The notes below the pieces were generated by a model that ran no database searches, had not been told where the DNA came from, and saw only the letters and a list, made by a program, of their open reading frames with translations. A DNA stretch of 64,000 bases, taken from contig CM120640.1 in NCBI GenBank assembly GCA_051362555.1, positions 21,328,001-21,392,000 on the forward strand, in the 5' to 3' direction. Positions 19,364 through 50,440 of the stretch are shown here, piece after piece; positions within the stretch are counted from its first letter, which is position 1; each line of letters opens with the position of its first letter. Origin of the DNA: Lingula anatina (lineage: Eukaryota; Animalia; Brachiopoda). The position numbers and the translations under genes were made by a program.

Positions 19364-22226
19364 TTAGCAACTACCTGGATAAGGAAAGGAATAAGATGCA
19401 TTTTGATAAGATCATTTCAAAATCTTATAAAGACTTAAGTAAACACCAAGATTAAAAAAAAAAACAGAATCAAAACATCATTACAAATTAGCAAAAACTT
19501 AAATAGATAGCAGAAATAGTCAATCATCCTAAATTAATAGGTCGGGTTCATAAGTGTCAGAAAATGTCCACCTTGAATCCTAAAATATGAAACATCTTAC
19601 CATAATTAATAGTGTAACTGTCTCTAACTTTGAACACCAAATCCTTCACATCACATTCGGCGGCGACCACTCTGTTATAGAAATTACTGGTACTGCCCTT
19701 GTGGTACTGCATCAGGTCTATTTCTCCGCTGCTGGGGTAATATGGCGCACTTGATTTTATTTTCCCAAAGATGCTTGAGGTACCTACATTTGAAATGAGA
19801 TCCCTGTCAAGCTATTTTAAAAGGCTACATAATATTACAGTTGAAAGATGACGTGAAAGATGGACTTTGTTAATATAATTTGTGATGTCCCACTCTCTTT
19901 ACTATGTGACTAAGGCATTTATCAAATTGCTTTGTAATTTAAAAACACACAGACTGAATTATTTCGTCTTTGCACACATCATTACCAAGTTTCTTAAAAA
20001 CATATTATATTTTATGCGAGAATAGGACAATGAAAGATAGCATGTTTTTCTTTGAAGCAGCCATTTTTCCATGTTCGGAAAATTATATGAAAATGTAACA
20101 TTATTTATTTATTCATTCTTATATATACACAACCTTATGAATAAAAACCATTGTAGCTTTTCGTACAGAGAGTGAACAAGATTTGCCACTAATTAGTATT
20201 ATAAGACTAATATCCTCCTTTACGCAAGGGCAGCAAAGAGTTTAAGTATCAAAAAGCGATCAAAATTAATTTTAAAAAAGAGCTAACTATTCCCTCCCGT
20301 TACTAAGGGAAAATGGTACCTTTGTGTCCCCAACTATATCTCAATCCGTGCGCTGCTTTCAAGAAAGAATGGCCGATCTCATGAGCGCAGGTCTTTATGA
20401 AGAGAGAAGCAGCGTCACTTCTGTAGGCCAAATATTTCACCGTCATTTTCAAGATGTCCGAGTTGTGAGAGCGCGTATTGCTAAACCACCATCCTTTTCT
20501 CTTGTAGTACTTTATCTGCAATCATACAATGCTTTAATTACAGTCTCATTACTATTCTTTATCAACTGATGTATACCCGTGCTGAAAAGAGCCACTCAAA
20601 ATACCAAGCGAATCAGGAAGTCACAAAAAAGCAGTTTCATAAATATCAACACTAACCTCACAAAACAAGCCTATATGTCAAATTGTATATATATTTATAT
20701 ATAGGTCTATAGTAAAAAAAATCAAACCTTAATTTTCTTCCTGTCTCCTCTGCTTTTTACCACCGTGTTGACATTCACAGTCCAGGTGCTACCGGCATAG
20801 GAGATGTATCTGGACCAGTATCTTTTAATTCCATTTTGACAGTAGCCGCACAGCGTGTTGAACCAGGAGCTAGATGGGCGTTTGAAGAGACCTCTGTCGC
20901 AGTCAATGCTGACGCTGACATCAAAGCGCTTGCAAGCTGGGCGTTTCACAACTTTTACCCATTTTAGCTTACCTATATATGAAAATCATGCTTATTTTGT
21001 GTCTTCTACATATATATTTCATGGCCTTCAGGCATTGACATAATATATCTCTTATTATGTCCATGCTTCAGGTAAAGGACAGAGATTAATTAGTTGATTA
21101 TTCACCCTACTCCATCATGTCAACACTCTGGAACTAGGACCCAAAATATATCTTCTATATTCTATCCTAGTCTGGAATCACCAGTGAGAGATAGTAGGCC
21201 TACTATACCCATAACATAACCTTTTTTTTCTTATTCAACAATAACACCATTGCAATTTTACTTTTTTAAACTAAAAGACACGAACATTTATGGTTTATCG
21301 TCCCATTAATAGGCCATACACCATGAATCATTTGTTCATTTCATCACCACAGCATAAAATAATTTTGGACATTCTGACATTTCGTTCATATGTTTGCGTT
21401 TTTTATCCAAAACACTGTATGGTAAATCTTTATCATATTTGACCTGACTTTATTTGTTGTTGCAAGGCATATTACCTTCCTAAATGCTTTCTGCCCAATT
21501 GCAAATGTAAAATGAGAAATTTTGTCATTAAGGGTGTATTCCCAGAGATTTAGATCGATCCAGAGATTAAGATTTAGATCGACCTAACTCCCTGGGGGTT
21601 CACGCTAAATTGCAGTCAGCCGAGCGCGCACCAAACACCCCATTTCCATAGATTTTTAGATCGATCTATCCCTGTGGGGAGTCTCACTAGATTACTGTAA
21701 GCTTGGCCGGCTTAAGCGTCTGTCCCGCCTACTAAAAGCTGTAAGGGGGTAATTAACTATGGTGCCCGCTCGGCTGACTGCAATTTAGCGTGAACCCCCA
21801 GGGAGTTAGGTCGATCTAAATCTTAATCTTTAGATCGATCTAAATCTCTGGGAAAGCACCCTATAGTTAATTACCCCTTACAGCTTTCAGTAGCCGGGAC
21901 AGACGCTTAAGCCGGCTAAGCTGACAGTAATCTAGTGAGACTCCCCACAGGGATAGATCGATCTAAAATCTATGGAAATGGGGTCTAAGTTTGCTCAGTA
22001 GTGATATTTCTGGCGGGTCGTCTTAATTTTTTTCCCCAAAATAAAATGTAATCCAATAATCTATGGCAAGGGCGAAATTTTGGGTTTTATGAAAAATCAG
22101 CGATTTCTTTTAATGGTCCATATTGAAATCCGTTTAGAACTGATACGGATTTATCTTACCTGCCATAACGCCATTGTTGACCAGTGCTATCCACACTAAA
22201 AACACCAAAGAGCAGAGCTTGAGCAT
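19364..22226 (-). CDS. Secreted HEXXH metallopeptidase-like protein, paralogue 1 (233 aa)
   Basis: Exons 22226-22160 (signal peptide MLKLCSLVFLVWIALVNNGVMA), 20972-20728, 20515-20320 (KTCAHEIGHSFLKAAHGLRYSWGHKG), 19783-19601 (YPSSGEIDLMQY..RVVAAECDVKDL), 19374-19364 (GSC*); GT-AG, phases 1/0/1/1, no stops. Confidence 0.88.
21532..21984. repeat. Two interleaved inverted-repeat pairs (A-B-A'-B'), MITE-derived, in intron 1 of paralogue 1
   Basis: A 21532-21633 pairs with 21760-21861; B 21637-21760 pairs with 21863-21984; absent from the equivalent intron of paralogue 2. Confidence 0.85.
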
Positions 22227-23983
22227 TGTTGTCTCACTCGAGTTGATCTGCACACGGTGTGTAATCGTGGCAGAACTGCATCTCCCTTTTAAGTAAGTTT
22301 TTCAGCCCACAAGACTGCATACATGTCGTAAAACGAGATAGTGTAATTTCTTTTCATTCTTTTGTTAGCATAACAGTAACTTCGTCGCGCTAGACACACA
22401 CACCCGGATAGCTTTGTGAAAAGGGCTCTCGACAGAGTGGTCCAGGAGATTAATAAGCGTGCGTACTGAAGTAAAATTTTATTTAAGCCCATGCCATTAC
22501 TGAAACACAGGTAGATAGATAGACAGATAGATAGATAGACCTTTTTATTTCCATAATATACAAAATATAAAAAAATATATTTATTAAAAAAAAAAAAAAA
22601 GCATCTGTTACGCGGCCTTGTTTTACGAAACTGTTTCTTGATATAACCTTATACACTTAGAGATGTATTGCATATTTGGACTATTTAAATGTTTTTAAAA
22701 ACAAGTGCAAGGTTTCCAGAGTCAATCTGTAGAAAGTCATTTCTAATTTCAGTTGTTTTTTGCACAGAAACAAATCACGTGCTCTCCAGTCTGTATGTCC
22801 TCACGTGTACACAAACGGTCCTTCCCGCGAATCTTTGCCCAATTTCCTTTCTCTATTTCCAACATTATGTGCGGACAGTCTTTGCCTTGTTGTTGCCAGT
22901 CAATCATGTTCTGGCACCGTGACATTGTGAAGTTCGTGGATAATTAGTTCCGGGCTTATGCAATTGTACAATTGTAAAAATTTACTACCCTCTGCCGTAA
23001 TTTACGTTTTTTGGATGTCAGTATTACAGATATAATATTTGAAAAAATAACCTATAAGGTAGATTAAGCGGTAAAAAGGTCTTCATTTAAAAAAAAAATA
23101 CCCCCCTCCCCGCCTTTGAAATTGCTGGTTTAAGCCCCGTGGAATTAATGGAACACTTGCGTTTGCGTTTATCTCTCGGTTATTCCATATTTGTCCAAAG
23201 AAGTCTCCTCTCACTATTCCCCCGCCCCGCCCCCCCCCTCTCTCTCTCTCTCCGTTTATTCATGAAATGTAAATACATTTTCAAAGCAAAACACGGGGCA
23301 TAGTTGAAACAAGACGACGCGAAATATAAGACGGGTTTGGGATCTTCTTTCATCAAAGCCACATCTTGTACATGTGTTATTTGATTCCTATGTTTATGAT
23401 TTCCAACAATAATCTGAGATATTCCAATCGTTCTTTTATTGAAATTTGTGTAGGAGTGCTGGCAAACATACAAAATATCGTATGGCTTTAATGATCTTCC
23501 ATATTTTGCAAAAAATAAATGAACAAAAAAAAAAAAAAAAAAAAATAGAAGACAAAAATTTAAATGAATGAATACATCGGTTAAATAAACAGATGGATAT
23601 TAAATAATATTATAAATAGATTATTATAAATAGATTATAATATAAAAAGAGGAATAAATAAAATAGAACATAGTAGAATAATTTTATAAATTTTTTATTA
23701 ATTTTGAGATTTTTCATGTTTCTTGTGACAGGTTGAATGTTTATAGACAAAGTACATGTATATGACAGGTCTTATTGATTTCTACCTAGAATAGTACCTA
23801 AATGACGTAACTTTCAAAGTATATTTTCAGTTGTTGCAGGTCATTTGAAAAAGCTTTTTTCAAGGTTGGTTAGTCTTTGTACAAACTCAAAAGAAAAACA
23901 AAACGAGTTACAGTTATAGTTTTGCATTTCGTTAGGATACGACTCTTCGGGTTTTCTCAAAAAGTAAAGGGAAAGCCTAGCAA

Positions 23984-24620
23984 TCAGCATTTACCTGCAA
24001 AATAAAAAAGACACTTCACTAAAAGGTTTCTCAAAGCGATTGACTGAATGAACCTTAATTTGTTTGTTTGTTTGTTTTTGCTCTATCATCTTCCAATAAA
24101 GATAATTCATCAGTAATTTGCAAGAGGGATTAAGTACTGTGAATGCTTGGTTCATTATTCGTGTCATATATAGGCCTACCGGTACCTATTTGGAAAGTGC
24201 TATCATTCACCTAAAATATCAAAAATCTTACCAGAATTGGTGGTGAAAGTGTCTCCAACTTTGAACACCAAGTCCTTCACGTCACTTTTGGCGGCGATCG
24301 ATCTGGAGTAGTAATTACTGGCCTTCCCCCTGTAGTACTTCATCAGGTCAATTTCACCTCTGCTGGGATAAGATGGCGCATTTGACTTTATTTTTCCAAA
24401 GATGCTTGAGGTACCTACAGATTAAATCGCACCTTTAAAATGCTACACATCATTACAGTTGATTATAATAACATAAGGCATTGCGTGAAACATGGTCTTA
24501 GTAGGGATTAAGTCGTTGATATCCGTCTCCACATGCTGTGCGACTCAGGAATTTATTAAGTTGCTTTATTTAAAAAAAAAGTTTAAACCTACCAATTTCA
24601 CTAAATATTTACAGGCTGAA

Positions 24621-24661
<41 letters not shown>

Positions 24662-26923
24662 AATCATAATTCGTGTTGAAGGAGTCTTTTGCGTCAATAT
24701 GTTTGCTCCCTATGCCTTTGAGAGATTGATACCTTTGTGTCCCCAACTATAGGTCAGTCCACGCGCAGCTTTTAGGAAGGAATGGCCGATCTCGTGAGCG
24801 CAGGTACGTTTGAAGCGAAGTGCAGCGTTACTTTTGTAGGCCAGATATTTCACCGTCATTTTCAAGATGTCTGAGTTGTGGGAACGTGTACTGCTGAAGA
24901 ACCATCCTTCTCTCTTGTAGTACCTTAGCTGCAAAAACGATATGCTTCAATTACAGTCCTATTACCAATTTTCTTTTATTCATAACAAGGCACATTTTTC
25001 CCAATCTTACTAAATCTCTATAAAACAAATTAAAACCTGGTAAAGCAAAAAAAAAAAAAAAAAAAAAATTGCCGAGTGACGCGAATTTACAAACGCACAC
25101 ACACGCGTGCGCGCGCAACACTATCAAATTCTATATCAAAGCAAGAAGTTATAAAGAGATGATCAATTAAAGAGATGATCAAAGGAAAAACAAAGCGGAT
25201 TTTCAAACCTTGATTTTTTTCCTGTCTCCTTTGCTTTTCAGCACTGTGTAGACATTCACTTTCCAGGTGCTACCACCATAGGAAATCTTTCTGGACCAGT
25301 ATTTCTGAATACCCTCTCTACAGTAGCCGCACAGCTTTTTGAACCAGTAGTTAGACGGACGTTTGATGAGCCCTCTATCGCAGTCAATGCTGACGCTGAC
25401 ATCAAAGCGATTGCAAGCTGGGCGTTTCACAACTTTTACCCAATCCAGCTTACCTATATATGAAAATCATGTTTATTTTATGTTTTCTACGTGTATATTT
25501 CACCGCCTTCAGCTAAAGGATAGGGGATTAAGCTAGATTTCCCTTATCCTCTTACAGTTTGTATTCTAAATGTGTTTTTGAAATTGAAATTTTATTATAA
25601 CAATATTTAGGCATTTCACATGAAAGAAACGATAAAAAAAGTCATTTTGCCTCTTGCTCTCTTGGTGGTGACCGAACTAAACTTTTAATGTATCAAGAAT
25701 GAAGGTTAAAAATGAAAGCATAAATAAAGCTGTGTATTCAAAATATAACATTTTAAATTTCTTATAAGGATGGACCCAGGATTTTAGAGAAACCTTAAAA
25801 TTCTGAGTCATTTTTCTCTCTGTATTTCCCTTTTGACAATAGTATAGCGAGAGAAAAACGTTTGTTATCATAAGAAAGAAATATTTAGTACATGTACTAA
25901 GAGTAACTAATAAATAAGAATGAAAATTGTTATAATTGCTTTATTAAACAGTAAGTCGTTTTATTTAGATATATATAGTGGACATTCCATATGTTATTTC
26001 ATAAATCAGTATTAACTTATATAACAGCATTTTACCTCTACTGCCAATCATTTCATCACTGCAAAAAAACACCAATTTATCTCTACTAATTAAAGAATAT
26101 AGATGAAAATATTGTTATAGATATGAGTAATGCAACATTTTTTAAATTTCAACTTGTATGTCATGTTATTTATATGCCGTCTAGGATATTTGTTTAATAT
26201 CTGCACATGTAAATGTATTACAAATTGAAAAAAAGCCTGCACTTTCCATGTTAGACCTTACATGTGTAAATGATAAAACAATATGTAACAGTGCTAAGTG
26301 CGTTTCCTTATTCTATCTATCATTGGTATTTTGAAACTTTCTAGGAGCATTTAGTCTGCCATAATTACATACTCGTATGCTGACATATAGCAAACTGAAG
26401 AAAGATAATATAACAGGTGTCCCTTTTCAAGGCAGTTAAAACAGGTCAATTCACATGAATTCAATTGTTCATTTCATCACAACAGCATAAAATAATTTAG
26501 GACATCCTGACATTTCACCCAGAGGTTTGCTGATCTATCCGAAACTCTGTATGATAAATCTTTATGCTATTTGTCTTTGAAAAAGGGAATACTCTGTTTG
26601 TTGCTGCAAGACAAAGGGACTATTATCTGCCCATTTACAGACGAACTTGGGGAAAATGTTTTACAGTCAGCAGAACACAGAAAATTTTGTCTGTGAATAA
26701 TATTCGTCCCCAAATCCCACTGCTCAATAGCAAATATCATCGAATAATTCATTACAAGGATGGAATTTTATTTTCAGAAATATGAGCCGCTGTGTTTGAA
26801 TTGGGTTATATTGAAACCCATTATTAACCCTTAGAACTTATATAGATTGATCTCACCTGCCAAAACGCCATTGCTGACCACTGCTATCCACACGAAAAAC
26901 ACCAAAGAGCAGAGCTTGACCAT
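23984..26923 (-). CDS. Secreted HEXXH metallopeptidase-like protein, paralogue 2 (233 aa)
   Basis: Exons 26923-26857 (MVKLCSLVFFVWIAVVSNGVLA), 25453-25209, 24928-24733 (RTCAHEIGHSFLKAARGLTYSWGHKG), 24414-24232, 23994-23984 (GKC*); same exon lengths as paralogue 1. Confidence 0.88.
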
Positions 26924-28499
26924 TGTTGTCTCACTCTAGTTGATCTGCGTATGGTATGTAATAGTGGCAGAGCTACATCTCACTTTTAAGTACTGTTCAG
27001 TAATTAGAATGCACGCGTGCTGTTAGAGCAGAATCCCTAAAAGATTTATTTCATTCTTTTGATAGCATAACAGAGTCTTCGCGGTGGTAGTTGTTGGCAC
27101 ACAGTTACACACTGGGATAGCTATAGTATGCGGAACAAGGCTATGCACAGAGGGGTTCAGGAGGTTTAAAAGAACTGCCTTGTTAGGATGGGAAAAGGAT
27201 CGCTCTGAATCAAAATTTTATTTAAGTTATATGCCGTTACCGAAGCACACGCGGGTTTTGCGGTGAAAATGTCTTCCTTTCCAGAAATACACCCCCTTTG
27301 AAAATGCTGGGTACAGCCCTACGTAATGAATGAAACGTTTAGGGTTGAGTTGATAACTTATTCATTCGGCTGTTTGTAAAAAGATGCAGTCTCCTCTAAA
27401 TTATTCTCTCTCTCTCTGTTTTTTTTTTCATAAACGAATAGCCACAGCAAAACAAGGGGCATAATGATGACGACGCGATATATGAGACTGTTCCAGTATC
27501 TTCTTTCATCAATGTCGCATCTTGTTTTATCCACAGGCGTCAAAGTGTTATCTGATTTTTATGTATACGTGTTCCTAGAATGATTTTATTGAAGGTTTAC
27601 TATGCGCGTTTGAAAATTTCCTAAGGTCATATTTTCTATGTCTAAATATTCTGAGCTATTCAAAGCTACCAATCTTTCCCAATCCAATCAATTATAAAAT
27701 CCGTCAATTTAAAGTACCTGACATCAATAGTTCCTTCTAAAATGCAAAGGAAGACATGGTGTTCTAAAGGACTGACCACTCATTTAGATTAAGGGTTAAA
27801 ACTAATAAACAACGGATCCAAGTGCAGGGACAAATAGAGCAATGATTCGTGTGCAGGAGAAAGTTGCTTTTCCCCCCGAGGAAATTTTTTTTTTTTGCGG
27901 CTTGATTCTGTATAGGGTACATTTAAAATTCAAGTAGAAGTTGTGGATCTGTAATTTATTGACCAATGTAGACGTGAGTTGTTATCCTATAACCATTAGA
28001 ATTAGGTAAACGTGCTGTAATACAGCGGTGTTTCTTAGAAGGAATTTGAAGAGGAAACTATTTATATTGGAAATCATATTCAAGAGAAACCATAAACAGC
28101 GGTGTTTCTAAGAAGAAATCATAGGCAAAACAAATTAACATGCAGGAAAAGCTTTAAAATAGTAATTAATAGCATTACGATTTAAAATATGCAAATTTAG
28201 TCTAGCATAACGATTTAAAATGTGCAAATTTAGTGGCTACTTGGAAATCAAGTTTGAGTGGCCTCTATGAATAAAAAACGCGGAAATTTTTAATAAATTC
28301 AAATTAAGCGTGATTAACCGAGAGGGTCAACAACGGTTACAGTCATCACACTGACAAGCCGCTACAAGTTGTTCGTTTCTTTAAATCTCTGCTACCTTGG
28401 CTCAAGTATTCTATGATTAGCGGGGAGGGGATGTGAGCAGGTTCTCTCACATCTTGTGGCCATTTTTTCTCTTATGTCAACCTTTTGCTCCATTAGGTT

Positions 28500-28933
28500 T
28501 AGGCCTTATAGCCGATGATTGCCGTTTTATAATAGTTTTATAGGCTTAGTTTTGGGAGCACAAGTGCATAAATTAAAGACTCCAGCCACGAATTAACTAC
28601 CCCCAACGTAGAATTACTTGTCACAAACTTAGCGTTTCTAAACCATTCATTTCATAAACAATGTGGCCAGCTTCCATCCGGGCCTCTGACTGTATACATA
28701 GGCCCCCTGTTTTTTTATACGGCAGCGATGCGTTCTCGACAATCTCCGGCTCATATAGGGGACGTACCGAAAGAGTAGATAAGCGGATAAACGGTTTGTG
28801 TAATAAAACGCTGTGCTTGTGGCAAGTAATTTTACTTTTGGGTGATAATACGTGGCTGGAATCGTTAATTTGTGCATTTGTGCTCCCAAATCTGAGGCTC
28901 GCGCTAGAAAACGCCTAACCCGTTTATAAGGCC
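28500..28933. mobile_element. Degenerate MITE / long inverted repeat
   Basis: tttgggagcacaagtgcataaattaa..ccagccacg (~28551-28590) pairs with cgtggctgga..ttaatttgtgcatttgtgctcccaaa (~28851-28890); outer aggccttata / tataaggcct. Confidence 0.55.
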
Positions 28934-30491
28934 TGAAGTTGTTTGTTAGGTAAAGAAATTTCGTCTTACATGTACCATATGCTGTATGAATGTGCTCTCA
29001 ACTACCACAATTTATCAGTTTAATGTCATCTCTGAGTGTATGTGTATACTGACCATCTCATTATCCTATGTAGATCTGCAAAGTGTCTGAACGGAGCGTT
29101 GACAATTTGTGTAAAAACTGTAAAAATGTAAGCTCACAGTAAAGATAAAAAGTAGTGACAATAAGTAAAGTCAGGCAAGAAACTAAAAACAAATTTCACT
29201 ATAGTCCGTGAAACTATAGATACTACAAATGCATACAGTATAATTAGCTATACAGGCACTTTTCCTTTTTTTTCAACTGTTATTGCGTGTGATGCCGTTT
29301 ACAATAAGCTTACATCTGGTAGATCAAGGGCCCTAACACATAAATGAGCATAAAATGATGATATTTCTTGAAATTTCTGTCTCTGTGTATATAATATTTT
29401 TCAGACACTTGGTCAACGACCCAAAAGTTTGCCATCCTCCCCTTAGTTCCAGACTGAGCATTAACCTGTTTTTACGACAATACAGTTATTGCAGGACCCA
29501 CAGAACAGTTTGTCTGGCGGTAATATAGACTGGTTTAATTCCGATGTAATATCAATGCTGCTGGCTGCACTGATACGTTAATACAAAAACCAACTTAAAG
29601 ATGCCCAGTGTGAGATTTCCCCCCGAAAAATCATAGTTAACGATTGTTTTCGGGTGTCATTAGAAAAGATATATTGGAAATGTTTTGCTGTGTTGAAAGG
29701 TAAATACGTTGCTTAAAACGACATTATTTTTGTCTATATTTTAAGGGGGATGCTATTTGTATTTATAGTGTTAGGTGTATCGAAGGGAATCTCTCCTCAC
29801 CCCACCAATATTCGGTGTCACAAAAACATCATAATTTGAAGAATACGTTAGAAGTCGTAGAAAGGTATATTGCAGAGGGCGCAAATTTTAAAACCATGTT
29901 GTTTTGGGCAATAAGGAGCCGACATTTTAACTTCAACTTCCGCATTTTGCCAGACAGTTCTGTTTTCTCGACAGCGAGGCAGTGTGTGTAAACAATGGAG
30001 ACACAAAAAAGTGCTTTTTTATAAAGTATGCAATGGTGAAAAACTCCCAAAGCCTTGATTTTATTTTCAAATCTTCAAAAATAATAAATATAAAAGATAT
30101 TGATGTGAAAACCATTTTGTTTGGCGTATGGATTATTATAAATTTATATTTTGTTAAAATGTTAGGCTTAAATATGCCAAAATCGTCTGCGTAATTCTAG
30201 TTCTCTTAACGAGACTGAGACCTTCTGTCTCTGTGCTTACCAGACAATTGAGTAATAGCGTCAAATTTAATTATCGCTGGACAGCACTGAAATGTGCACA
30301 GAAATAGAGAAATATCTGTGTGACATATTCTTATTATTTGGAATAGCTTTAATGGAGGTTGGTTTGTCTCGGAAAAGTCAACCTCTAAAAAGAGTTACAT
30401 TTATAGTTTTGCACTCTTCTCAAAAGCGTCCCAGTTCTTTTCGAATACGTTCCTTCAGCTTTTCTCAAAAGGTAAAGGGAAAGCCTGACAA

Positions 30492-32829: not shown

Positions 32830-32865
<36 letters not shown>

Positions 32866-33314: not shown

Positions 33315-33349
33315 ACTCCACAACAGTTATTAAAGCGGACCTTCACAGT

Positions 33350-36967: not shown

Positions 36968-37017
<50 letters not shown>

Positions 37018-39207: not shown

Positions 39208-39425
39208 AGGGATAATAACTCTTCGTATGAGATCTATATTTTACAATAATAACATTGTGAACAATTCACAGATATATAATATATCCTGTTTTACCACAAA
39301 AACGGCAGTTATAGCTATTATTCTGATATCTGAGTTTGTCTTTAGACCACATGACCTCCATTGATGGCTATACTCTGTTATAATCTCTTGAGAGATTATA
39401 ACAAAAACAAACCTTTTAGAAAAAA
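39208..39425. mobile_element. Truncated copy of the Kolobok-like element at 12121-12456
   Basis: TTAA+AGGGATAATAACTCTT, followed by the reverse complement of ~12250-12456. Confidence 0.7.
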
Positions 39426-39439
39426 AAAACAGGGACTAA

Positions 39440-39690
39440 CTTTGAATGTAAAAAAGATAAAAAGAATCAGAATGAGGCAAGACTATATAGACGGTGGACT
39501 AAGAGTCCCCGACTTCAAGTCTTTTTCAAGAGCGCTTAAACTCGCATGGGTACAAAAATTAATTAACGAAAACAATGAGCGCAAATGGAAAGTGTTATGT
39601 ATGGAATACTTGAAAATACTGGGTGGGGATAAATTTTGGTTCCTCACAAGACATGGTCTATGTTTAAATAAGAATATATTCAATCTGCTA
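39440..39690 (+). mobile_element. L1/Tx1-like LINE fragment (post-RT region)
   Basis: GGLRVPDFKSFSRALKLAWVQKL resembles the GGLG.PD....AL...W...L motif of L1/Tx1 ORF2. Confidence 0.6.
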
Positions 39691-41129
39691 CCGGTAATTC
39701 ATTGGTCGAAGGGAACACGAGTGGTTATTCTTGAGTCATTAAAATAAGCAGACGTGCTGTAATGCAAGGACAACGCTGTTTCTTAGAAGGAATTTGAGCA
39801 ATAAACAATTTACATTAGAAATCATTTTCAAGGGAACCGAAAAAAAACCACAAATGAACACCTGGACAAAGCTTACAAAGTAATAATTTACTATGTAACG
39901 ACTTTGGAATACGCAAAATTGGTCCCTACCTGGTCATCAAAGTGGGTTGGCCACTCTAAATATAGAAGGCGGAAATGATATTCTTTTTTTTTTTCAAATT
40001 TGTCGTGGAGAGCCAAGTGGATCAACACGGTGGCAAGCCCCTAGAAGTAGTTTTAAAATTTACATTTCTGCCTACTTTTACGGGGATGTGAGCTTCTCTC
40101 ACATCTTATGGCCTTTTATTTTCATTTGTGCCAACTTTTTGCTCCTAAAGCTGTTGTTATTTCTCATAATTTTCTTAATTAATCTTGGTTACACTCATTT
40201 ACATACTTTATTATTTTTATATTATGGCACTTATATAGTTTGGAAGTCGTTATATTATCTCCCCAGTTTTGTAACTGCGCATCTTATTAGTTTTCGTAAT
40301 TAATAATTGACAATTTTCAGTTACATGGACTTATCTTACTTACTTTGGAGCAAAAACAGAGCTTCGTTGTGCTTGTGAACATTTGGCTACATTAAGCATT
40401 ATATGACGAACTAATATCGTAACCTTGACACTGTATCCGGGATGCGTGTGTAGTGCCTAGAACACTTTCCATCATGAATCATTATTTCAAAAGTTTTAAA
40501 CTATGTTTTATGATGTAAAATGTCAACCCAAAGCATATTTTAAAACACTCCCACGAATTTAAGTTCGTTTGCAGCCGTTTTATCATTTAGCAGAGTATTG
40601 AGCTTCAAAAGTTTTATAAGATGTTCGTACACAAAAATGTCCTTGATAAGGTCACTTGTCATAGCAACCGACCACCGTATGTAATTTACTTAGTCTTAAA
40701 GTAATTATTGTCATTTGTATGGACAATTAACCCCCTATCACCAGGTAAAGAAGGGATAAACAAATAATCTCACCGATTTCATTTTTGTTAAGATAGGCTA
40801 TAGTGTTGTTTTTTATTTCATTTTCTGTCGCATTTCTTAACTCCAGTAAAATATTTCAGAAAAGTAGAAATCCCTCAAATAAATAATTCAAAAGCAGTGT
40901 ACATCTTTCCTGGAATGAGGGTTGTCTTGATGGGGGGGGGGGGGGGGGTTTGTCGGAGGGGGTGTCTTGGGGATTGTCCTGGCGGAATTGAACGGTGTGG
41001 GGGGGGGGGGGGAGTGTCCTAGACTCAATTTTATATACTTAGTAGTATCAAATGAATAAAATACAAATCATTGGTATATTTTTTCTCAGTATATTTTTTA
41101 TTCAGCAGCTGATCCACGTTCTTCATCCA
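39690..41129 (+). repeat. Segmental-duplication flank homologous to ~33905-35007 (and partly ~27950-28490)
   Basis: Shared blocks such as ttcttgagtcat..ggacaacgctgttt, aatgtccttgataaggtcacttgtcat, cagctgatccacgttcttcatcca; homology to ~35190 onward resumes at ~47640, after the LINE/DIRS insertion. Confidence 0.85.
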
Positions 41130-42175
41130 CATTTCTTTACTGCCCAGTGATAATTTCTGCATAATCCTATCTTGTTGGGAGAATGCATCAAGTTAATATA
41201 AATGGTGTGCTTTCTGAACTCTCACAGCTTTTATTTGGTGTTCCTCAGATGAGCGTGCTTGGCCCGCTTAAGTTTTGTGTTTACACGTTACCCCTTGGAG
41301 CAACTCTGCGTTATCATAAGATAGATAACTACTTTTATGCCGATGATACCCAGTTGTACACATCTTGTAACATCCATGATCCAGCATTGTCTGTGAACAC
41401 AATTGTTGATTGCATATCAGACCTCAGAGGTTGGCTCATTTCAAACAAATTGAAGATAAATGATGGAAAAACAGAATTTTTAGTCATTACTCAACCCCAC
41501 AAGAAGGGCCTTGCTCATAACTTGCAACTTAAAATTGGAGCTAGTATGGCATTTTCCTCCCCCCATGTAAAAAAATTAGGAGTATACTTTGATTCTACAC
41601 TTTCAATGGACAAACAGATCTCCAACATCACAAGGTCTTGTTTATTCAACATTCGGAATATTGGCACCATAAGGAAACATCTGAATCAATCATCTGCTGC
41701 TACTGTTATACACTCATTGGTAACTTCCAGGCTAGACTATTGCAATTCTATATTATATGGGTGTCCAGATGATAAGATCAAAAGATTACAACGCATCCAG
41801 AACATCTCAGCACGGCTTTTAATGCTACAGCCTAGGGATTGCCATATCACTCCAATTCTACCATCAGCTGACTCCCATTCCAAGATTACATGAGATGCGC
41901 ACGCATATCTACCCAGAATGCAATTAGCGCTGCATAATGGTTACCCAGAGCAGCGAACGATTTTTGCTGATGCAAAATCGCGTTTTTTCTTATTAATTTC
42001 CTATCATATGGTCCTTTTCTGCGGCGAAGGACATTGCCTTACTGATGCGGTTAGCATTTGCAATTTATGCCGAAACTGTGTCTCTTAATTTTGAGGCTCT
42101 CGTGCGCGGGAAGTTAATCTCGTTCTTCGACTCCAAGTTCTGGCTGAGTCACGTGGAAGTAGTTTTTTCTTTGTC

Positions 42176-43480
42176 ATGGAAAAAATGAGCAACAAGCAAT
42201 TTAATTTAGCGGAGACTGTGTTTCAGTCCGATGCCGAAAAAGCTAAAGCTAAAGCCAAAAAGGCCTCGGCCGCTCGTGTAGCGCCAAACAATCCAAAAAC
42301 TGACAAAATGTCGGCAAGTAAAGATGGGAAAAGTGCAGTAGCAGATAACGCTTTGTCCTGTTCGTCGGCGTCACGCACGTCGGCTACCAATGCAACGCAT
42401 GATGATGATGATGATGAGGCGTGTTTTACAGCACCTGCAATGAAGAGAGGCGCTGAAAGTGCTCTCTGTTTTGATTCCAACTCCATGGCTAAGAGAAGTC
42501 GCATTGATAGCGAATTTTCCAATGCGCCATTTGATGAATTTGGAGATCATACGGAGGCAGGTGAAAATTATGATATAGACATGCAACTTGATAAATTGCT
42601 TGACCCTGATGATGAAGGGGATATTCAGCAGCAGGAGGATGAACTGTTAGCTGAGTTAGAGAAGGAATTCCTTGCCCCTGATGAAGAAGTGGGGCCTGCT
42701 ATTCAGGCAAAGTTCGGGGAGCTTATTAACAATATGTTTACATCTCCCATGTCAGATGAAAAAGTGAAAGCGTTGTCAGAAAAATGTCTGAGACCTGAGA
42801 ATTGTCCCAATATCTGCAACGCCCGTGTGAATCAAGAAATTTGGGATGTTATGAACACCTCAGCCCGCATTACTGACATTGCAGTGAGCAAAATTGGGGC
42901 AAGGATGGTTAAGAGCGTCTTGCCCATTGTACAGGTTGTAGATCAACTCTATCAAGCAAGAGCCGAGGGGAAAAATGCTGATATACCCCGTGCCATACGT
43001 GGTTGTATGGACTCTCTGGCACTGATGGGCAGTGCTGTGCATGAACTGAATTTGCATCGCAGAAATTCTATTAAAAAGGACTTACCACCCAGAGCGCAGA
43101 GAGTGGCTTCTAAGGTCAAGGACGAGTCTAGTCTCCTATTTGGTACAGAGTTGCAGAAAAATCTTAAAGAATTGGCTGAAGGCGAAAAATTGGGTCTTGG
43201 GGGACCTAAGAAAATTCGTTCCAGTTTTGCTAAGAACCCTTCGCATGCTTTTGGCTCATTACAGCAACAGGCACGTGGCCGTGGTTTCCAGGGTTATAGC
43301 AGGCTTTACTACCCTAGACAGATGTCGGGGGAAGGCAGGTGGGGTGCCGCGGGGTGGACCCAGCAGCAGCGCCCCCACTACCAACAGGGTCCCTACAGCA
43401 CGTACAATTACAAAAAGCAAACTTACAAAACAGGAAGCCAAAACCAAGGCAGAAAGGACAAAAATCAGCAAAAGAAATAG
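42176..43480 (+). CDS. DIRS ORF1, Gag-like protein
   Basis: 434-aa open frame; RPENCP..ARVNQEIW, HELNLHRRNSIK, LLFG motifs of DIRS Gag; first ORF of the element. Confidence 0.85.
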   Translation: MEKMSNKQFNLAETVFQSDAEKAKAKAKKASAARVAPNNPKTDKMSASKDGKSAVADNALSCSSASRTSATNATHDDDDDEACFTAPAMKRGAESALCFDSNSMAKRSRIDSEFSNAPFDEFGDHTEAGENYDIDMQLDKLLDPDDEGDIQQQEDELLAELEKEFLAPDEEVGPAIQAKFGELINNMFTSPMSDEKVKALSEKCLRPENCPNICNARVNQEIWDVMNTSARITDIAVSKIGARMVKSVLPIVQVVDQLYQARAEGKNADIPRAIRGCMDSLALMGSAVHELNLHRRNSIKKDLPPRAQRVASKVKDESSLLFGTELQKNLKELAEGEKLGLGGPKKIRSSFAKNPSHAFGSLQQQARGRGFQGYSRLYYPRQMSGEGRWGAAGWTQQQRPHYQQGPYSTYNYKKQTYKTGSQNQGRKDKNQQKK

Positions 43481-45567
43481 AAATTGTAAGTAAATTTGAT
43501 GAATTTATGAGATTAGCAGAGGCTAGATCTTTAGAGGCAGTGAATAACTTCAAAGCTGGTCGGTTGAGGGAATATTTTGACTTCTGGAGAACAATGACTT
43601 CTGATGCTCATATCCTTTCATGTATTAAAGGGGTGGCATTAGAATTCAATGATACGCCAGTGCAGCAAGCTGTCCCTAAGCCTTACAGATTTGATGAAAC
43701 TAAATCCAGGCTTATTGACCAGCAAATTCAAATTATGTTGAGCAAAAGCATTATTCAACCCGCCCAACATTCTTCGGGTGAGTTCATATCAAATATATTT
43801 ACCAGGGACAAAAAAGATGGTGGTATCAGAGTCATTCTAGATCTGACAGAGTTGAACAAATTTATTCAGTATCATCATTTCAAGATGGATACTTTTCAGA
43901 CAGCTTTAGATTTAATTTTCCCTAATTGCTACATGGCATCGATTGATTGGAAGGATCCTTATTTCTCAGTGCCCATAAGAAATGAAGATCGAAAGTACTT
44001 GAGATTTGTTTGGAATTCAAACCTCTATCAGTTCACTTGTCTGCCTAACGGTCTAGCCTCTGCTCCAAGAATCTTTACTAAAATCACAAAGGTTATGTTT
44101 GCTGAACTTAGAAAGAAAGGTTTTCTTTGCTCTTCATATATTGATGACTCGTTTTTGGTTGGTGACAAGGAAGAATGTGAAGAGAATGTTATGATCACTT
44201 TTGAATATTCTGAGAAGTCTGGCTGGGTTACTCACCCAGTCAAGTCACGATTTAAACCAGCACAACAAAGAACTTTCTTAGGCTTTATTATTAATTCAGT
44301 CCTAATGAATGTTACCTTGACCCCAGATAGAATTCAAAAAATGATCACACGTATCTCTAAGATTATAGATGATAATGGTAGAGTCACTATACGTGCATTA
44401 GCAGAGGTTATTGGACTAATGGTGGCTAGTTTCCAGGCAGTTGAATTTGGGAAACTTTATTATCGTAGGTGTGATAATTTTAAATCACTGGTATTGCAAC
44501 AGCACGCAGGGAACTACAATGCCAGGGTTGTTCTCCCTCAAAGATGTATGATAGATCTTGGTTGGTGGAGGGATAACATCACTACTGCCTCAGCTCCCAT
44601 TAGGAGGTCCACCCCTGATGTGGTCTTGACCTCTGATGCTTCTACAGTGGGCTGGGGTGGTACCTGTCATGGACAGTCCACTGGTGGGAATTGGACGGTG
44701 GAGGAGCAGAAAAAGCATATTAATGAACTTGAACTCAAGGCAGCTTACTTTACCATAAAAGCTTTCTGTTCACAATTTACTAACAGACACATACTCATTA
44801 GAATTGATAACACCACTGCAGTAGTCTATATTAACAATATGGGAGGCAAGAAAGATCATTGTAATGAGGTAGCTAGAGAATTGTGGCTATGGTGCATTAA
44901 CAGGTCTCTTTTTGTTACAGCAGCTTACCTGCCAGGAGCTCAAAACATCGAGGCAGATGCAGAGAGTAGAACATACCATGACAATGGTGAGTGGGAGCTG
45001 GATAGAAATATTTTTCTAAAAATCTGCAGACTTTGGGGCAAGCCTGAGATTGATTTGTTTGCATCAAGAATTAACAATAAAGTGAAAGTTTACTACTCAT
45101 GGAAACCAGATCCAGATTGTATGGAGGTGGATGCATTTACAGTTTCTTGGGCCCATAAATTTGTTTATGCCTTCCCACCTTTTTGCATGATGGGCAAAGT
45201 TTTACAAAAAATGAAAGTGGAAGGTGTGACAGGTATTATTATTTTTCCCTTATGGCCTACTCAGCACTGGTATTCCTTGCTTGGTTCAATGCTTATTGAT
45301 TTTCCTGTTTCTCTCTTTCACAGGGACAGGTCAGTATCGGTCATTCATCACCCTCTCTTGAATGCCCAAGATCACCTTCCCAAGATCAGGCTTGCAGCAG
45401 CACTTGTTTCTGGCAGATGCCAGGCACAGCAGAACTTTCAGAGACAGCTCAGCGGATTATCGAGGCCTCATGGCGTGATGGCACCAAAAAACAGTATAAC
45501 TGTTACTTCAAACAGTGGTTTTCCTTTTGTAGTCAGAGGGATTGGAATCCCTTTCATGCCTCTGTAA
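43339..45567 (+). CDS. DIRS ORF2: reverse transcriptase / RNase H / Dam-like methyltransferase
   Basis: RT (RVILDL..LN, LPNGLASAPRIFTK, YIDD), RNase H (TSDAS, HINELELKA, DNTTAV, ADAES), MTase (IDLFAS, YAFPPF); no stops; true start uncertain. Confidence 0.93.
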   Translation: MGCRGVDPAAAPPLPTGSLQHVQLQKANLQNRKPKPRQKGQKSAKEIEIVSKFDEFMRLAEARSLEAVNNFKAGRLREYFDFWRTMTSDAHILSCIKGVALEFNDTPVQQAVPKPYRFDETKSRLIDQQIQIMLSKSIIQPAQHSSGEFISNIFTRDKKDGGIRVILDLTELNKFIQYHHFKMDTFQTALDLIFPNCYMASIDWKDPYFSVPIRNEDRKYLRFVWNSNLYQFTCLPNGLASAPRIFTKITKVMFAELRKKGFLCSSYIDDSFLVGDKEECEENVMITFEYSEKSGWVTHPVKSRFKPAQQRTFLGFIINSVLMNVTLTPDRIQKMITRISKIIDDNGRVTIRALAEVIGLMVASFQAVEFGKLYYRRCDNFKSLVLQQHAGNYNARVVLPQRCMIDLGWWRDNITTASAPIRRSTPDVVLTSDASTVGWGGTCHGQSTGGNWTVEEQKKHINELELKAAYFTIKAFCSQFTNRHILIRIDNTTAVVYINNMGGKKDHCNEVARELWLWCINRSLFVTAAYLPGAQNIEADAESRTYHDNGEWELDRNIFLKICRLWGKPEIDLFASRINNKVKVYYSWKPDPDCMEVDAFTVSWAHKFVYAFPPFCMMGKVLQKMKVEGVTGIIIFPLWPTQHWYSLLGSMLIDFPVSLFHRDRSVSVIHHPLLNAQDHLPKIRLAAALVSGRCQAQQNFQRQLSGLSRPHGVMAPKNSITVTSNSGFPFVVRGIGIPFMPL

Positions 45568-46373
45568 AATCTGCTGTAGAATTTCTCACTGAGTTGTCAG
45601 AGAGGGGTTTGCAGTATTCTGCACTGAACACTGCCAGGAGCACCTTGTCAGCTTTTCTTACCATCGGGGATTCACCTTTGGGAGAACACCCGCTGATTTG
45701 CAGATTCATGAAAGGTATCTTCAATCTTAAACCACCTATTCCTAAAACTAAGGTTATTTGGGATGCCACTGTTGTTTTGAATTTTTTGAGAGCATGGTCA
45801 CCAGTAAAGAATTTGTCTCTAAAACAGTTGACACTGAAAGTGGTTATGTTATTTGGACTTTTGGCAGGTCAGAGGGGGCAGTCCCTTCATCTTATGGATA
45901 CAAGGAACATTGATCTTAATAAGCATCGGGTGAAAGTTTCTTTTGGCGATCTTTTGAAAACCTCTCGTCCAGGGTATCACCAAACACAAATCACAGTGCC
46001 AGCATATGCTCCAGATCGCAGATTGTGCATATGTGTAACATTGACGGAGTACTTAAAGCGTACATGTCCACTCAGAGACAAGTACACTGCACTATTCATC
46101 AGCTACATGAAACCACACAAACCAGTCTCAAGGGATACGTTGTCGAGGTGGGTGAAGTGTGTCCTAAAAATGGCTGGTATTGATACTTGTGTATTTACAC
46201 CACACAGTGTGCGAGCTGCAGCTACTTCGGCTGCAAAAGCAGCAAATGTACCTTTGCAGACGATCTTAGATACGGCAGGTTGGAGCAAAAAGGATACGTT
46301 TGCTCGTTACTATGAGAAGAAAATTGATAAAAGTGGATTATTTGGTTCAAAAATTTTGAATAAAACAAAGTAA
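45417..46373 (+). CDS. DIRS ORF3, tyrosine recombinase
   Basis: SAM-like N-domain (SWRDGTKKQY..W..FC) and catalytic residues R (GQR), K (LLKT), HxxR (HSVR), W (AGW), Y (TFARYY). Confidence 0.93.
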   Translation: MPGTAELSETAQRIIEASWRDGTKKQYNCYFKQWFSFCSQRDWNPFHASVKSAVEFLTELSERGLQYSALNTARSTLSAFLTIGDSPLGEHPLICRFMKGIFNLKPPIPKTKVIWDATVVLNFLRAWSPVKNLSLKQLTLKVVMLFGLLAGQRGQSLHLMDTRNIDLNKHRVKVSFGDLLKTSRPGYHQTQITVPAYAPDRRLCICVTLTEYLKRTCPLRDKYTALFISYMKPHKPVSRDTLSRWVKCVLKMAGIDTCVFTPHSVRAAATSAAKAANVPLQTILDTAGWSKKDTFARYYEKKIDKSGLFGSKILNKTK

Positions 46374-47547
46374 TGGTTTCAGGGCAGAAAAATAATGACA
46401 TGGCAAATGTGTAATTGTGGCCTAGATTGTGTTAAAGAAAGGACTTTCTTAGTACTGTATAAATGTTTGGTACATACACTTCAAATTAGGGTTAACGTGT
46501 TCAAATTTAAAGTTGGCTCCCTCAGTTTAAGGAGCAAGTTTATTATGTAGTTAAACAGTTCATGTTGTTAAAAAGGTTCATTTGTTAAAAGTTATTATTA
46601 AAGTTAATATATTTAATTTGTGAGTTATCGGCTTATTGATTTTTTCCAATTCATTTCAAGCAGGGTACTACTGTTGTACTACTCCTCAGTTGTGGAATTG
46701 GTGTTTATTGGTACAACTTTAAACCCTCATGTAATCTTGGAATGGGAGTCAGCTGATGGTAGAATTCAAAAATTAAACGAAACTTACCTGTAAGTTGAAG
46801 TTTGATGAGAATTCTACTTATCAGCTGACGAAATGGAGAGATTACATGCCCACCTCTAGCCCTCCCAAATCTCTCCATTTCTTTTTCCCTTGTACCAATA
46901 AACAAGCTTTAAATTTTGCATTCTGGGTAGATATGCGTGCGCATCTCATGTAATCTCTCCATTTCGTCAGCTGATAAGTAGAATTCTCATCAAACTTCAA
47001 CTTACAGGTAAGTTTCGTTTAATTTTTGAATTTTAAAGCATCTGCACTGGTTACCAGTTAGGGCCAGAATTTTATTTAAGGTTTTAGTTTTTACACATGC
47101 TGCTTTTTATAATCTAGCTCCACCATATATAACTGATCTAGTCAAACATTATAGCACTCAAAGATCCCTGAGGTCTGGTGATAAACTTTTACTGAAAGTT
47201 CCAAAATCAAGGTTAAAATCATATGGTGACGTATCATTTTGTGTAGCTGCACCAGTAGAGTGGAATAAGTTGCCAATTTTTATTAGACAAATAGAATCAC
47301 AAGAATCTTTTAAAAAGGAATTAAAAATTCATATTTTTAAGACATTTTATTCATGAATCTTAAATTTTACAATTTTAAAGAAACCTTGGATTTTTTACTT
47401 TTAATAACTGTTTATTACAATTAAGTTAGTTTAGCTCTTATTTATATAAAATATATCTTAACCATTTTTATCTATAAACTTCTTTGTATTTTATGTTGTA
47501 CAGTCTATTGAACATTTTATGGATTTTACACTTGAAATAAATAAATA

Positions 47548-47601
<54 letters not shown>

Positions 47602-47832
47602 ATTTGACGTCATCACTCAGTTGGCTTCCGCTAGAGATTGTGGAAAAATATTGCAGGGTGACAGTGCGTTTAACGATCAAATTGTAATATTTCAAACACG
47701 TGTTAGGTACATAAGATGCTTCCTGTTAAACACAGATGGGAATGGGGCCTTACAGTCTTCTCAAAAGTGTCTACATTCCGTTCGTATACGTTTTTTCGGG
47801 TTTTCTCAAAAAGTAAAGGGAAAGCCTGGCAA

Positions 47833-48232
47833 TCAGCATATGTCTGCAAAATAAAAAAGAACTTCACTAAAAAAAGGTTTCTCAAAGCAATGTACTAAAA
47901 GAATCATAATTGATTTGTTGTATCCCATTTAAGATGATACATCACTTCTTTGCAAGAGGGATTTAGTTCTTGTGATTAATGGGTCAAAATTAGTAACTAT
48001 ACCTTTTCGAAAAGTGTGAACGTTCACGCAGAATATCAAACATCTTACCAGTATTGGTCGTGTAACTGTCTCTAACTTTGAACACTAAATCCTGCACATC
48101 ACTTTCGGCGGCGACCACTCTTTTAAAGAAATTACTGGTACTGCCCCTGTAGTACTTCATCAGGTCTATTTCTCCGCTGCTGGGGTAGGCTGGCGTAGAT
48201 GGTTTTAATCCTCCAGAAATTCTTGAGGTACC

Positions 48233-48283
<51 letters not shown>

Positions 48284-50440
48284 AAAGATATCATTTAAGA
48301 ATGGGCTTTTTTCAATTAACAAGTGACTTCTAATGGGTATTTAATAAAACATTTTCCTTGCTTGTTTAGAGTGCACATGTATCTCCAAATAGATTTAAGT
48401 TAAGGATTACTTTTTTTTAATGAATACAAATGTGTAGAATTGAGTACATTTATTTATTCAGTTAGAAGGAATGGGATTAAGAGAAGAGACTATATGAGAG
48501 GCAGCAATGTCATTGTGTGTGTATGGGGGGAGGGGGTGCGTACGTATTCAATATGTAGGACACACCCTTCGCTCCTTTTTCAGTTATAGTTATTATCAAT
48601 CAAAGAATCGTGTTCATTATTCCAATTTGCATTTTAAATCGTCTTTAATGACGTTTATTAGCTGCAAGTAAAATCATCGGTCAGAATAGCAAGAGGTGTT
48701 TATAAGTCTGTAAAGGTTCAAAATACTGTCCTTACACTGTACAAATATAATTTCGATGTTCGTCATTCATCGGCCAAATTAAAAGATGGAGATGTAATGA
48801 TCATAGTTAGGACAGGACAGGAATAAACTGATCACACAGAAATGTTGCGGAAAATATTTCTGACGATGTCCGCACAACATCGCATGAAAACGAGTATATT
48901 TCTATTATCTTATGTTTTTTTTTAAAGTCTAAATTCCATATACATAGGCCTATGTTTAGTAGACTTCACAATTATGTTTATTACATATATACTCGAACAT
49001 ACAATGTACGTCCTCCCGCTCCGGAGGCGGGTACTCTAACCACAAGGCCTTCAGGTCGGTATACTGGCCGTTCATGCAGAAATACATGGGTGTTTTGAAA
49101 AAAAAACAATACCTTTATGACCCCAACTGTATTCAATGCCGTGGGCATCTCTGAGAAAAGAATGGCCGATCTCATGAGCGCAGGTCTCCTTGAAGAGGGC
49201 AGCAGCATCACTTCTCTTGCTCAAATATTTCACCGTCATTTTCAAGATGTCAGAATTGTGTGAAGGACTCGACGATTTTCGCCACTGAAGCTGAAATTGT
49301 GAGATAAAGTAAAAAAAAAATGTGCAAAAGATGCGTATTGACAAGTGAAGATTAAATAAACATAGGGCGAATGAGATTTTTCATTGTGGTAGACAGGTCG
49401 ATTTATCTTAAGACAGGTTGTACCTATTCACATTTATATTTCTTGCTCTTATAACATAATATAGCATTAATGCGCATGTTAATCTGCAAACGTGCAAAAG
49501 GTGTGTTTTGACAAGTTATTACTTAAATGTGTTAAATCACACGTTTATAAGGCAAAGAAGGGGTTTTAAAAGCCGCAAATAGTCCGATTAATATTTGGAA
49601 ACCTTTAACTTATTTACACTTAGATTGCTTACGCTTACGACTTGTGTTACGCTAATGCTGAATGTAAATTTGACTTTTTGAGATGCTGTGAGCCCCTGGG
49701 AAATCGGCTGATTGTTTTTTTTTTTTGTTTTTTTTTGTTTTTTTTTTTTTTTTTGTGCGCCAAAATCAGCAATACGATTCCTTTATTCAATCTGAATTTT
49801 AAAGCTATACCTGGAACTGCTGTAGGATTATTATTGAATCTAATAGTATGTTTCTTAATTCATATACACATTTATTGGTTTGATGCAAATGTTGCTGAGA
49901 CAAAAAAACAATACAAACCTCAATTTTCTCCCTGTCCCCGCTACTTCTCAAAATTGTTTTGCTATTCACAATCCAAGTACTACCGGCATAGGAAATTCTT
50001 CTGGACCAGTAATTCTCAATACCCTCTCTACAGTAGCGACACAACATTGAGAACTGGCTGTTGGAGGGGCGGTGGAAAAACCAGGGTTTATCACAGTCGA
50101 TATACACATTGACATCGAAGCGCCTGCAGTATGGGCGCTTCACAACTTCAACCCAGTCAAGTCTACCTGAAATTCAGGAAAAATGCTATAAGCTAAATAT
50201 TTTCAAAAATCAAAGTCTGTCATTTGCAGTATTTTATCTGTGACGACCTTTTACGACAATGTATCTCGCTGGACTATGAAAACAGAAAAAAATCTTGGCT
50301 TTCTGAATCCGATTATACTTAAAAGGAAAAGAAAAAACATATGAAAAAAAAAATGTTCATAACCTACCTAAAACGCCGCAGCATTCTAAAGCCATCACGA
50401 ATGCAAGCGCAACACAAAGGTGCTTCATCTTGGTTGTCAT
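47833..50440 (-). CDS. Secreted HEXXH metallopeptidase-like protein, paralogue 5 (~230 aa)
   Basis: Exons 50440-50368 (MTTKMKHLCVALAFVMALECCGVL), 50166-49919, 49290-49113, 48231-48049, 47843-47833 (DIC*); ORF intact but the native promoter is missing. Confidence 0.83.
49010..49070 (-). mobile_element. Possible tRNA-derived SINE head fragment in intron 3 of paralogue 5
   Basis: Minus-strand GGCCTTGTGGTTAGAGTACCCGCCTCCGGAGCGGGAGG (A-box-like plus stem), no B-box; absent from the paralogue 4 intron. Confidence 0.35.

Follow-up and report, generated by a model that had tools for sequence, protein, structure and literature searches.

Five tandem genes of the brachiopod Lingula anatina as probable animal copies of a bacterial predicted zinc protease toxin domain

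To our knowledge, the interbacterial weapons whose domestication by animals has been shown are cell-wall amidases and lysozymes. In bacteria, polymorphic toxins are laid out together with an immunity protein, as described in the excerpts of PMC3482391 used here. Among toxins with a metallopeptidase domain, VgrG2b/Tpe1 depletes membrane lipoproteins; its family is annotated as DUF4157, and the accessible portion of the source makes no mention of an animal copy (PMC6899460). Here, we describe five genes, c1 to c5, in a stretch of 64,000 nucleotides (nt) from Lingula anatina (GCA_051362555.1, contig CM120640.1, positions 21,328,001 to 21,392,000), referred to as the window. On balance, these genes are best explained as horizontally acquired animal copies of a bacterial predicted zinc protease toxin domain, likely secreted against bacterial envelopes. 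The bacterial ancestry of the domain is highly probable; a secreted antibacterial role, which is argued by analogy, is moderately so.

A six-frame motif scan followed by exon-by-exon building recovered five complete gene models on the minus strand, and no sixth copy or gene fragment was found in the window.

Positions 50440-47833, minus strand: gene c1, exons 50440-50368, 50166-49919, 49290-49113, 48231-48049, 47843-47833
Positions 37787-35363, minus strand: gene c2, exons 37787-37715, 37423-37176, 36573-36396, 35760-35578, 35373-35363
Positions 33308-30492, minus strand: gene c3, exons 33308-33236, 32681-32434, 31731-31554, 30888-30706, 30502-30492
Positions 26923-23984, minus strand: gene c4, exons 26923-26857, 25453-25209, 24928-24733, 24414-24232, 23994-23984
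Positions 22226-19364, minus strand: gene c5, exons 22226-22160, 20972-20728, 20515-20320, 19783-19601, 19374-19364

Each gene consists of five coding exons with intron phases 1,0,1,1. All 20 introns follow the GT-AG rule, internal stops are absent, and the encoded proteins comprise 230 (c1), 230 (c2), 230 (c3), 233 (c4), and 233 (c5) amino acids (aa). A first-pass annotation of this DNA had proposed five minus-strand paralogues of about 230 aa with a common five-exon and phase structure, and the rebuilt models bear this out; the motifs it quoted, such as GI..YWSR, SHNSDILK, and HEIGH, occur in all five copies. Exon 1 of each copy encodes the hydrophobic leader alone, and exon 5, only 11 nt long, supplies the terminal cysteine. 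The proposed signal peptide and the richness in lysine and arginine were likewise recovered: in a hydropathy scan, used instead of a signal-peptide predictor, the N-terminal stretch reaches a 12-residue Kyte-Doolittle mean of 2.2-2.8 in c1-c5, with no second membrane-type hydrophobic window, and the proteins hold 34-46 K+R versus 13-24 D+E (isoelectric point 9.18-10.07). Pairwise identity among the copies is 66-87%, and the ratio of non-synonymous to synonymous substitution (dN/dS; simple counting method, leader excluded) is 0.21-0.48 in all ten pairs, with bootstrap upper bounds below 1. The catalytic residues are retained in every copy. Because the exon boundaries match in five paralogues and c4 equals a Lingula anatina RefSeq protein (XP_013396473, 100% over 233 aa), the array is not a product of chance.

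Upstream of the first ATG used, a TATA box lies at 79 nt in c2 and 81 nt in c3. The region upstream of c1 (50441-50800) is unrelated to that of c2 and c3 from the start codon outward; it carries CCAAT-like and CACGTG motifs and has no TATA box. On this sequence comparison, the c1 promoter seems to have been replaced.

Searches with the Lingula proteins and their relatives found no Pfam, NCBIfam, or PDB sequence family for the domain. The protein searches, with 120 of 263 matches listed, returned Lingula itself, four eukaryote-like proteins (P0004-P0007), and bacterial-type proteins, and no named animal other than Lingula is among the matches listed. A full HMMER search, clustered at 50% identity, gave 570 clusters, 150 of them listed. 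The HNSD motif of the Lingula group was found in 0 of 141 new HMMER-listed and 0 of 116 new protein-search-listed relatives, none of which exceeds 125 bits against that group. In one of the protein searches, with the full-length protein as query, the top match outside Lingula is a 248-aa protein (E 2.3e-22, 36%), encoded by an open reading frame (ORF) of a Cellvibrionaceae locus, L002. A genome scan covering one bacterial genome per species yielded 78 loci from 89 matches, distributed over Bacteroidota (44), Pseudomonadota (25), Myxococcota (4), Actinomycetota (3), and Planctomycetota (1), with one unassigned, which agrees with the likeness to Bacteroidetes and Gammaproteobacteria proteins proposed in the first-pass annotation. 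The ESM Atlas clusters nearest to the domain are all bacterial (best TM 0.84). In an order-wide sample, the domain occurs in 2 of 401 genomes, one of them the centre genome, and its distribution is therefore patchy. Viral contigs gave one weak locus among 366 candidates, and a plasmid search with the family protein P0024 gave no match.

The bacterial relatives are arranged in the manner of polymorphic toxins, as had been suspected. Among the HMMER clusters listed, the domain ends no more than 20 aa from the C-terminus in 138 of 141 new relatives. Fusions to delivery domains were found in 13 of 54 scanned ORFs (PAAR 4, DUF4280 7, Hcp 2) and in 12 of 30 hand-picked long proteins (DUF4280 6, PAAR 3, Hcp 1, VgrG 1, extracellular contractile injection system (eCIS) core 1). 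When a fusion, or a neighbour family identified as VgrG, DUF4280, Hcp, or TssC, is taken as a mark of the T6SS (type VI secretion system), 41 of the 78 loci are marked. Repeated orphan cassettes are present in 10 of the 78. Four loci of Flavobacterium and Riemerella (L036, L039, L055, L076) hold as many as six toxin cassettes in a row, complete or partial, and every cassette is followed by a small gene of its own. Furthermore, three Streptomycetaceae proteins of about 1650-1750 aa (L001:1690-6627, L006:1339-6603, L009:1693-6630) carry a helix-hairpin-helix at the N-terminus and the domain at the C-terminus; no known delivery domain was matched in them.

The gene that follows the domain gene usually encodes 110-150 aa and abuts the stop codon. 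By a rough pattern, a lipobox is present in 39 of 76 such genes versus 42 of 291 background ORFs, and the commonest family among them is a transthyretin-like β-sandwich. For locus L020, the predicted complex of the domain and its lipoprotein scores 0.89, the best of three controls 0.01; the runs agree in at least 97% of contacts, and the partner has a pLDDT value (predicted local distance difference test) of at least 89. Of 78 solved complexes, 51 attain the mark set for this score, as do 2 of 108 mismatched pairs; the mark applies only roughly here, zinc having been included in the L020 run. Predicted contacts involve H154 of the HExxH motif, T151, R113-S114, and Y201-Y207 past the conserved methionine, so that the lipoprotein is predicted to bind beside the catalytic motifs. 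A lipoprotein as antidote suggests that the target is periplasmic or lies in the envelope. From gene layout and modelling, the bacterial relatives appear to be an undescribed polymorphic-toxin and immunity family with an extracytoplasmic target. We postulate that rivals receive the domain by injection into their periplasm, where it would cut an envelope protein, namely lipoproteins or their linkers if the parallel with VgrG2b/Tpe1 holds, and that the downstream lipoprotein would protect the producer.

Structurally, the model of c4 (mean pLDDT 87, predicted TM-score 0.84) is best matched by the snake-venom metalloprotease 1dth (Z 9.1, 142 residues, root-mean-square deviation 3.9 Å). Snake-venom, ADAM (ADAM8), mirolysin, matrix metalloproteinase (MMP), and astacin chains follow, the top rows being nearly all of the metzincin clan, at a sequence identity of 7-16%. 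With Foldseek, MMP domains rank first (best E 0.012, MMP1), and no match to the protease model was found at E 0.001. VgrG2b is absent from the 50 structural matches listed, a likeness to it being possible all the same. The predicted metzincin-like fold comprises a sheet, a backing helix, an active-site helix, and a C-terminal helix.

The HExxH motif, located on helix 139-160 of the c4 model, is present in all 220 aligned rows. Metzincins are defined by the extended motif HExxHxxG/NxxH/D, according to the consulted part of PMC11674741; HExxHxxGxxH/D occurs in 0 of the 220 rows. A histidine 15 residues past the second histidine of HExxH is found in 195 of 220, and a [DN][LIV]MxY motif in 213 of 220. 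Among 71 aligned rows, H149, E150, H168, M194, and Y196 are invariant; M194 and Y196 of c4 are encoded in exon 4, and the preceding exon serves as the example of a catalytic exon:

Positions 24733..24928, minus strand: c4 exon 3, encoding H149-E150-x-x-H153 and H168

H168 is the candidate third zinc ligand, and M194 the candidate Met-turn residue, with Y196 two residues on. Judging from the models, the domain is metzincin-like in its predicted working, yet outside the metzincins as classified. The first-pass annotation had set the proteins apart from animal metzincins; this stands for the absent extended motif and pro-domain, with the refinement that the predicted fold is metzincin-like. Membership in the animal astacin, MMP, or ADAM families was rejected, as no Pfam or NCBIfam match to these or to any other known animal peptidase family lies above cut-off for the Lingula proteins, and c1-c5 have neither a pro-domain nor an accessory domain.

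The animal version lacks the delivery domains and the immunity gene and has its own leader exon. Mature net charges of the five copies are +9, +14, +20, +31, and +25, c4 being the most cationic (+31 after the leader). Per 100 aa, this amounts to +4.4 to +14.7 in Lingula versus a bacterial median of +1.25 (range -5.8 to +8.3, 65 rows), and three of the five copies exceed the bacterial maximum. The mature part contains 6-7 cysteines, six of them common to all copies, compared to a bacterial median of 1. Such changes in charge, cysteines, and leader would be expected if the enzyme is secreted and attaches to anionic surfaces. In the animal, the signal-peptide exon would take the place of the injection parts and the immunity gene, the secreted form would be held stable by its six conserved cysteines, and the gain in positive charge may draw the enzyme to anionic bacterial surfaces. 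Tandem duplication would then have given rise to five variants differing in charge.

A maximum-likelihood tree was built from 59 rows picked from the 220 after removal of near-copies. The Lingula proteins form one group (97/95), which P0004 joins at 100/97. P0004 has 221 aa, 52% identity to the Lingula proteins, and the same cysteine pattern, and is probably cut at its N-terminus; its likeness suggests that the family is older than Lingula anatina. P0005-P0007 consist of 483-507 aa, with an N-terminal MABP/DUF2464-like membrane-binding region ahead of the protease domain; a DUF2464/MABP domain was matched in P0007, and P0005 has a hydrophobic leader. Their pro-region may resemble that of diatom secreted proteins; an Atlas search with the N-terminal part of P0006 found no match. 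The next sets in the tree are bacterial-type (88/85 and 76/87). An arrangement with Lingula and P0004 in a bacterial-type group and the MABP proteins apart is not rejected by the approximately unbiased (AU) test (p 0.257), and one or two eukaryotic acquisitions are therefore both possible. P0005-P0007 may represent a second eukaryotic capture. The bacteria-to-animal direction is derived from the distribution of the domain and from the complete toxin system in bacteria, not from the tree.

Several observations weigh against a domesticated bacterial toxin. The short stand-alone bacterial forms nearest to Lingula lie mostly among housekeeping genes. Among 39 ORFs lying upstream in 24 of the 37 loci without a T6SS mark, none is a T6SS part and one has an RHS repeat. 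The outer membrane would shield a periplasmic target, and tick Dae2 cannot pass it, as stated in the available text of 10.1101/2020.04.10.036376. In the tree, P0005-P0007 join Lingula and P0004 (95/90), and all of them share an HNSD motif that the bacterial rows lack. Being unrooted, the tree gives neither direction nor donor. Finally, with 150 of 570 clusters and 120 of 263 matches listed, more animal members may exist.

The first of these points bears on a rival explanation in which the origin is bacterial and the animal use is non-defence extracellular proteolysis, such as digestion, work on the mucus or burrow lining, or work on the shell or pedicle matrix. Secreted proteases of a general kind have this fold, the ties between the nearest bacterial branch and T6SS loci are weak, and a crude pattern found no kB-like site within 600 nt upstream of any copy. 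We regard this explanation as rather unlikely, given that short forms (L003, L010, L023, L080) still keep the downstream lipoprotein-like gene, that the Lingula copies show a strong cationic shift, and that they lack the pro-domain or accessory domain typical of digestive and matrix metzincins. In addition, a sheath gene is present elsewhere in the genome for four of five tested genomes of the short-form branch. As to the shielded target, Dae2 kills Gram-positive bacteria instead (excerpts of 10.1101/2020.04.10.036376), and for the Lingula enzymes a comparable shift to Gram-positive targets, or synergy with membrane-active peptides, is plausible.

The grouping of Lingula with P0004 and P0005-P0007 and the common HNSD motif bear on a second rival, in which the gene came by way of some other eukaryote, such as a microalga, or is an old gene of eukaryotes that nearly all lineages have lost. 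The hydrophobic leader of P0005 and the DUF2464/MABP domain of P0007 also speak for it. Set against this, separate origins are not rejected by the AU test, the MABP branch is long (1.34), and among the sources listed Lingula alone is a named eukaryote, facing hundreds of bacterial clusters, so that the old-gene view needs very many losses. We consider this rival improbable. The transfer route may nevertheless be indirect, because the nearest bacterial branch is mostly without T6SS neighbours and four eukaryote-like relatives group with Lingula. For the first-pass annotation, the idea of a domesticated bacterial enzyme with introns, a signal exon, and amplification is upheld by the gene structure and the bacterial relatives and is left without a donor by the unrooted tree; the concern that homologues might be spread broadly over Metazoa is eased by the matches listed and kept alive by the four eukaryote-like proteins.

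That the genes belong to the animal genome is shown by their introns and by the host genes beside them. On one side, the array is flanked by exons of two host genes, the second directly beyond c5, and on the other side by transposon remains.

Positions 6367..7221, minus strand: sodium/calcium exchanger gene, one exon (PF01699, E 2.5e-31), host flank
Positions 15873..16091, plus strand: INO80 subunit B gene, one exon (match to the full-length PDB chain 6hts_R, E 5.8e-7), host flank

Among the RefSeq counterparts, all labelled uncharacterised, two proteins match c3 at 98.7% identity, and another one matches c2 at 95.7%. The RefSeq models, from which copy number beyond the window was judged, lie on three scaffolds: four on one, two on a second, which is possibly the other allele, and, on a third, a remoter paralogue (60-73%). 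P0013, a fused database model, runs through five units in the order seen in the window. Its last unit is 88% identical to c5, compared to 99-100% between c1, c3, and c4 and their database counterparts; this gap would fit strong allelic divergence or copy turnover at the array end. Contamination or misassembly of the array is very unlikely, because RefSeq holds the same proteins, the fused model keeps the same order, and host exons flank the array. A dead array could be suspected from c1, which has lost the upstream region common to c2 and c3 and which is represented in RefSeq by a fragment of 106 aa. The introns, the flanking host genes, purifying selection, the degree of divergence among the copies, and the same proteins in RefSeq make contamination, an assembly artefact, or a dead array, taken together, a far-fetched explanation.

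Between c1 and c2 lies an apparently intact DIRS-type (tyrosine-recombinase) retrotransposon (42095-46373, plus strand) with a long first ORF, a reverse transcriptase ORF, and an integrase-family ORF. Its short inverted repeats, at 41854-41923 and 46726-47035, are perfect, and a reverse transcriptase fragment (41165-41893) resembling long interspersed nuclear elements precedes it. Upstream of c1, at 52424-53449 and 53953-56409 (both minus strand), are a Tc1/mariner transposase in two frames and integrase remains of a long terminal repeat retrotransposon. Of an eIF4A-like gene that is joined to c1 in one database model, the window holds a single 20-codon piece, in c1 intron 2.

Our literature searches found no name or paper for the bacterial toxin-type domain family and no paper naming any of six Lingula RefSeq identifiers; they likewise found no paper on Bacteroidota T6SS metallopeptidases and, among those citing the dae paper, none that deals with metallopeptidases. 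By title or opening of the abstract, the listed papers on transfer or immunity in Lingula and brachiopods do not concern it. The word 'horizontal' does not occur in the main text, as far as accessible, of the Lingula genome paper (PMC4595640), and the accessible portions of PMC6838775, PMC8632748, and PMC7864903 contain nothing on the family. The domesticated effector we favour, with the moderate confidence given to it above, would thus be built on a toxin family for which these searches found neither. A more far-reaching proposal is put forward tentatively, as we hold it to be somewhat doubtful: an undescribed family of T6SS and eCIS toxins, zinc proteases of metzincin fold whose third zinc ligand is non-standard and whose immunity proteins are transthyretin-like lipoproteins, would have been taken up by a brachiopod, and by at least one further lineage of eukaryotes, and made into a secreted, amplified, cationic arsenal against bacteria. 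This would be the first case of an animal domesticating an interbacterial toxin of the protease type. If true, a bacterial family of toxins and immunity proteins would come into view that has no name although it is widespread (five phyla, 570 clusters) and frequent in the T6SS loci of Bacteroidota, with an extracytoplasmic target and a zinc site that departs from the metzincin rule. Animal capture of a protease-type toxin would widen the domestication route for innate immunity and provide the first brachiopod candidate effector of interbacterial-weapon origin, with five natural variants in which to study how a periplasmic toxin that was once injected becomes suited to extracellular work.

Compared to the metzincins (1dth, ADAM8, mirolysin, MMPs, astacin), the domain has in common the fold, HExxH, and the conserved methionine with a tyrosine two residues on; metzincins carry HExxHxxGxxH/D and a pro-domain, whereas the domain has neither and shows the histidine 15 residues on instead. 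Tpe1-Tpi1, or the C-terminal metallopeptidase of VgrG2b with PA0261, is an HExxH T6SS toxin with periplasmic action, which resembles the bacterial relatives, and its immunity protein is likewise small, downstream, envelope-located, and often a lipoprotein (excerpts of PMC6899460). The structural search with the c4 model gave metzincins, and Tpe1/VgrG2b is set apart by Pfam: membership was rejected, as 0 of 71 members match PF13699 at E 0.1. In P0286, PF13699, which we take to be the former DUF4157, is a separate N-terminal domain. Among the Pfam matches of the 71 members at E 0.1 there is no Tox-MPTase name, Pfam presumably holding models for types 2-5 only. Tox-MPTase1-5 and PVC-metallopeptidase are HExxH peptidases used as C-terminal toxin domains, like the bacterial relatives; unlike these, they are listed with RHS repeats and without an immunity protein (excerpts of PMC3482391).

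Dae1-4 proper were ruled out for the Lingula genes by the HExxH domain, the metzincin-like fold, and the lack of an amidase family match. The likeness to Dae lies in the route. In the sections available of 10.1101/2020.04.10.036376, tick Dae2, from the T6SS effector Tae2, is likewise an effector with a periplasmic target that moved into an animal, gaining a signal peptide and losing the injection apparatus, a course that the Lingula genes probably followed too. Dae proteins are peptidoglycan amidases with shown activity (same source), whereas the Lingula array encodes a predicted HExxH zinc protease from a family that has no name, amplified in tandem.

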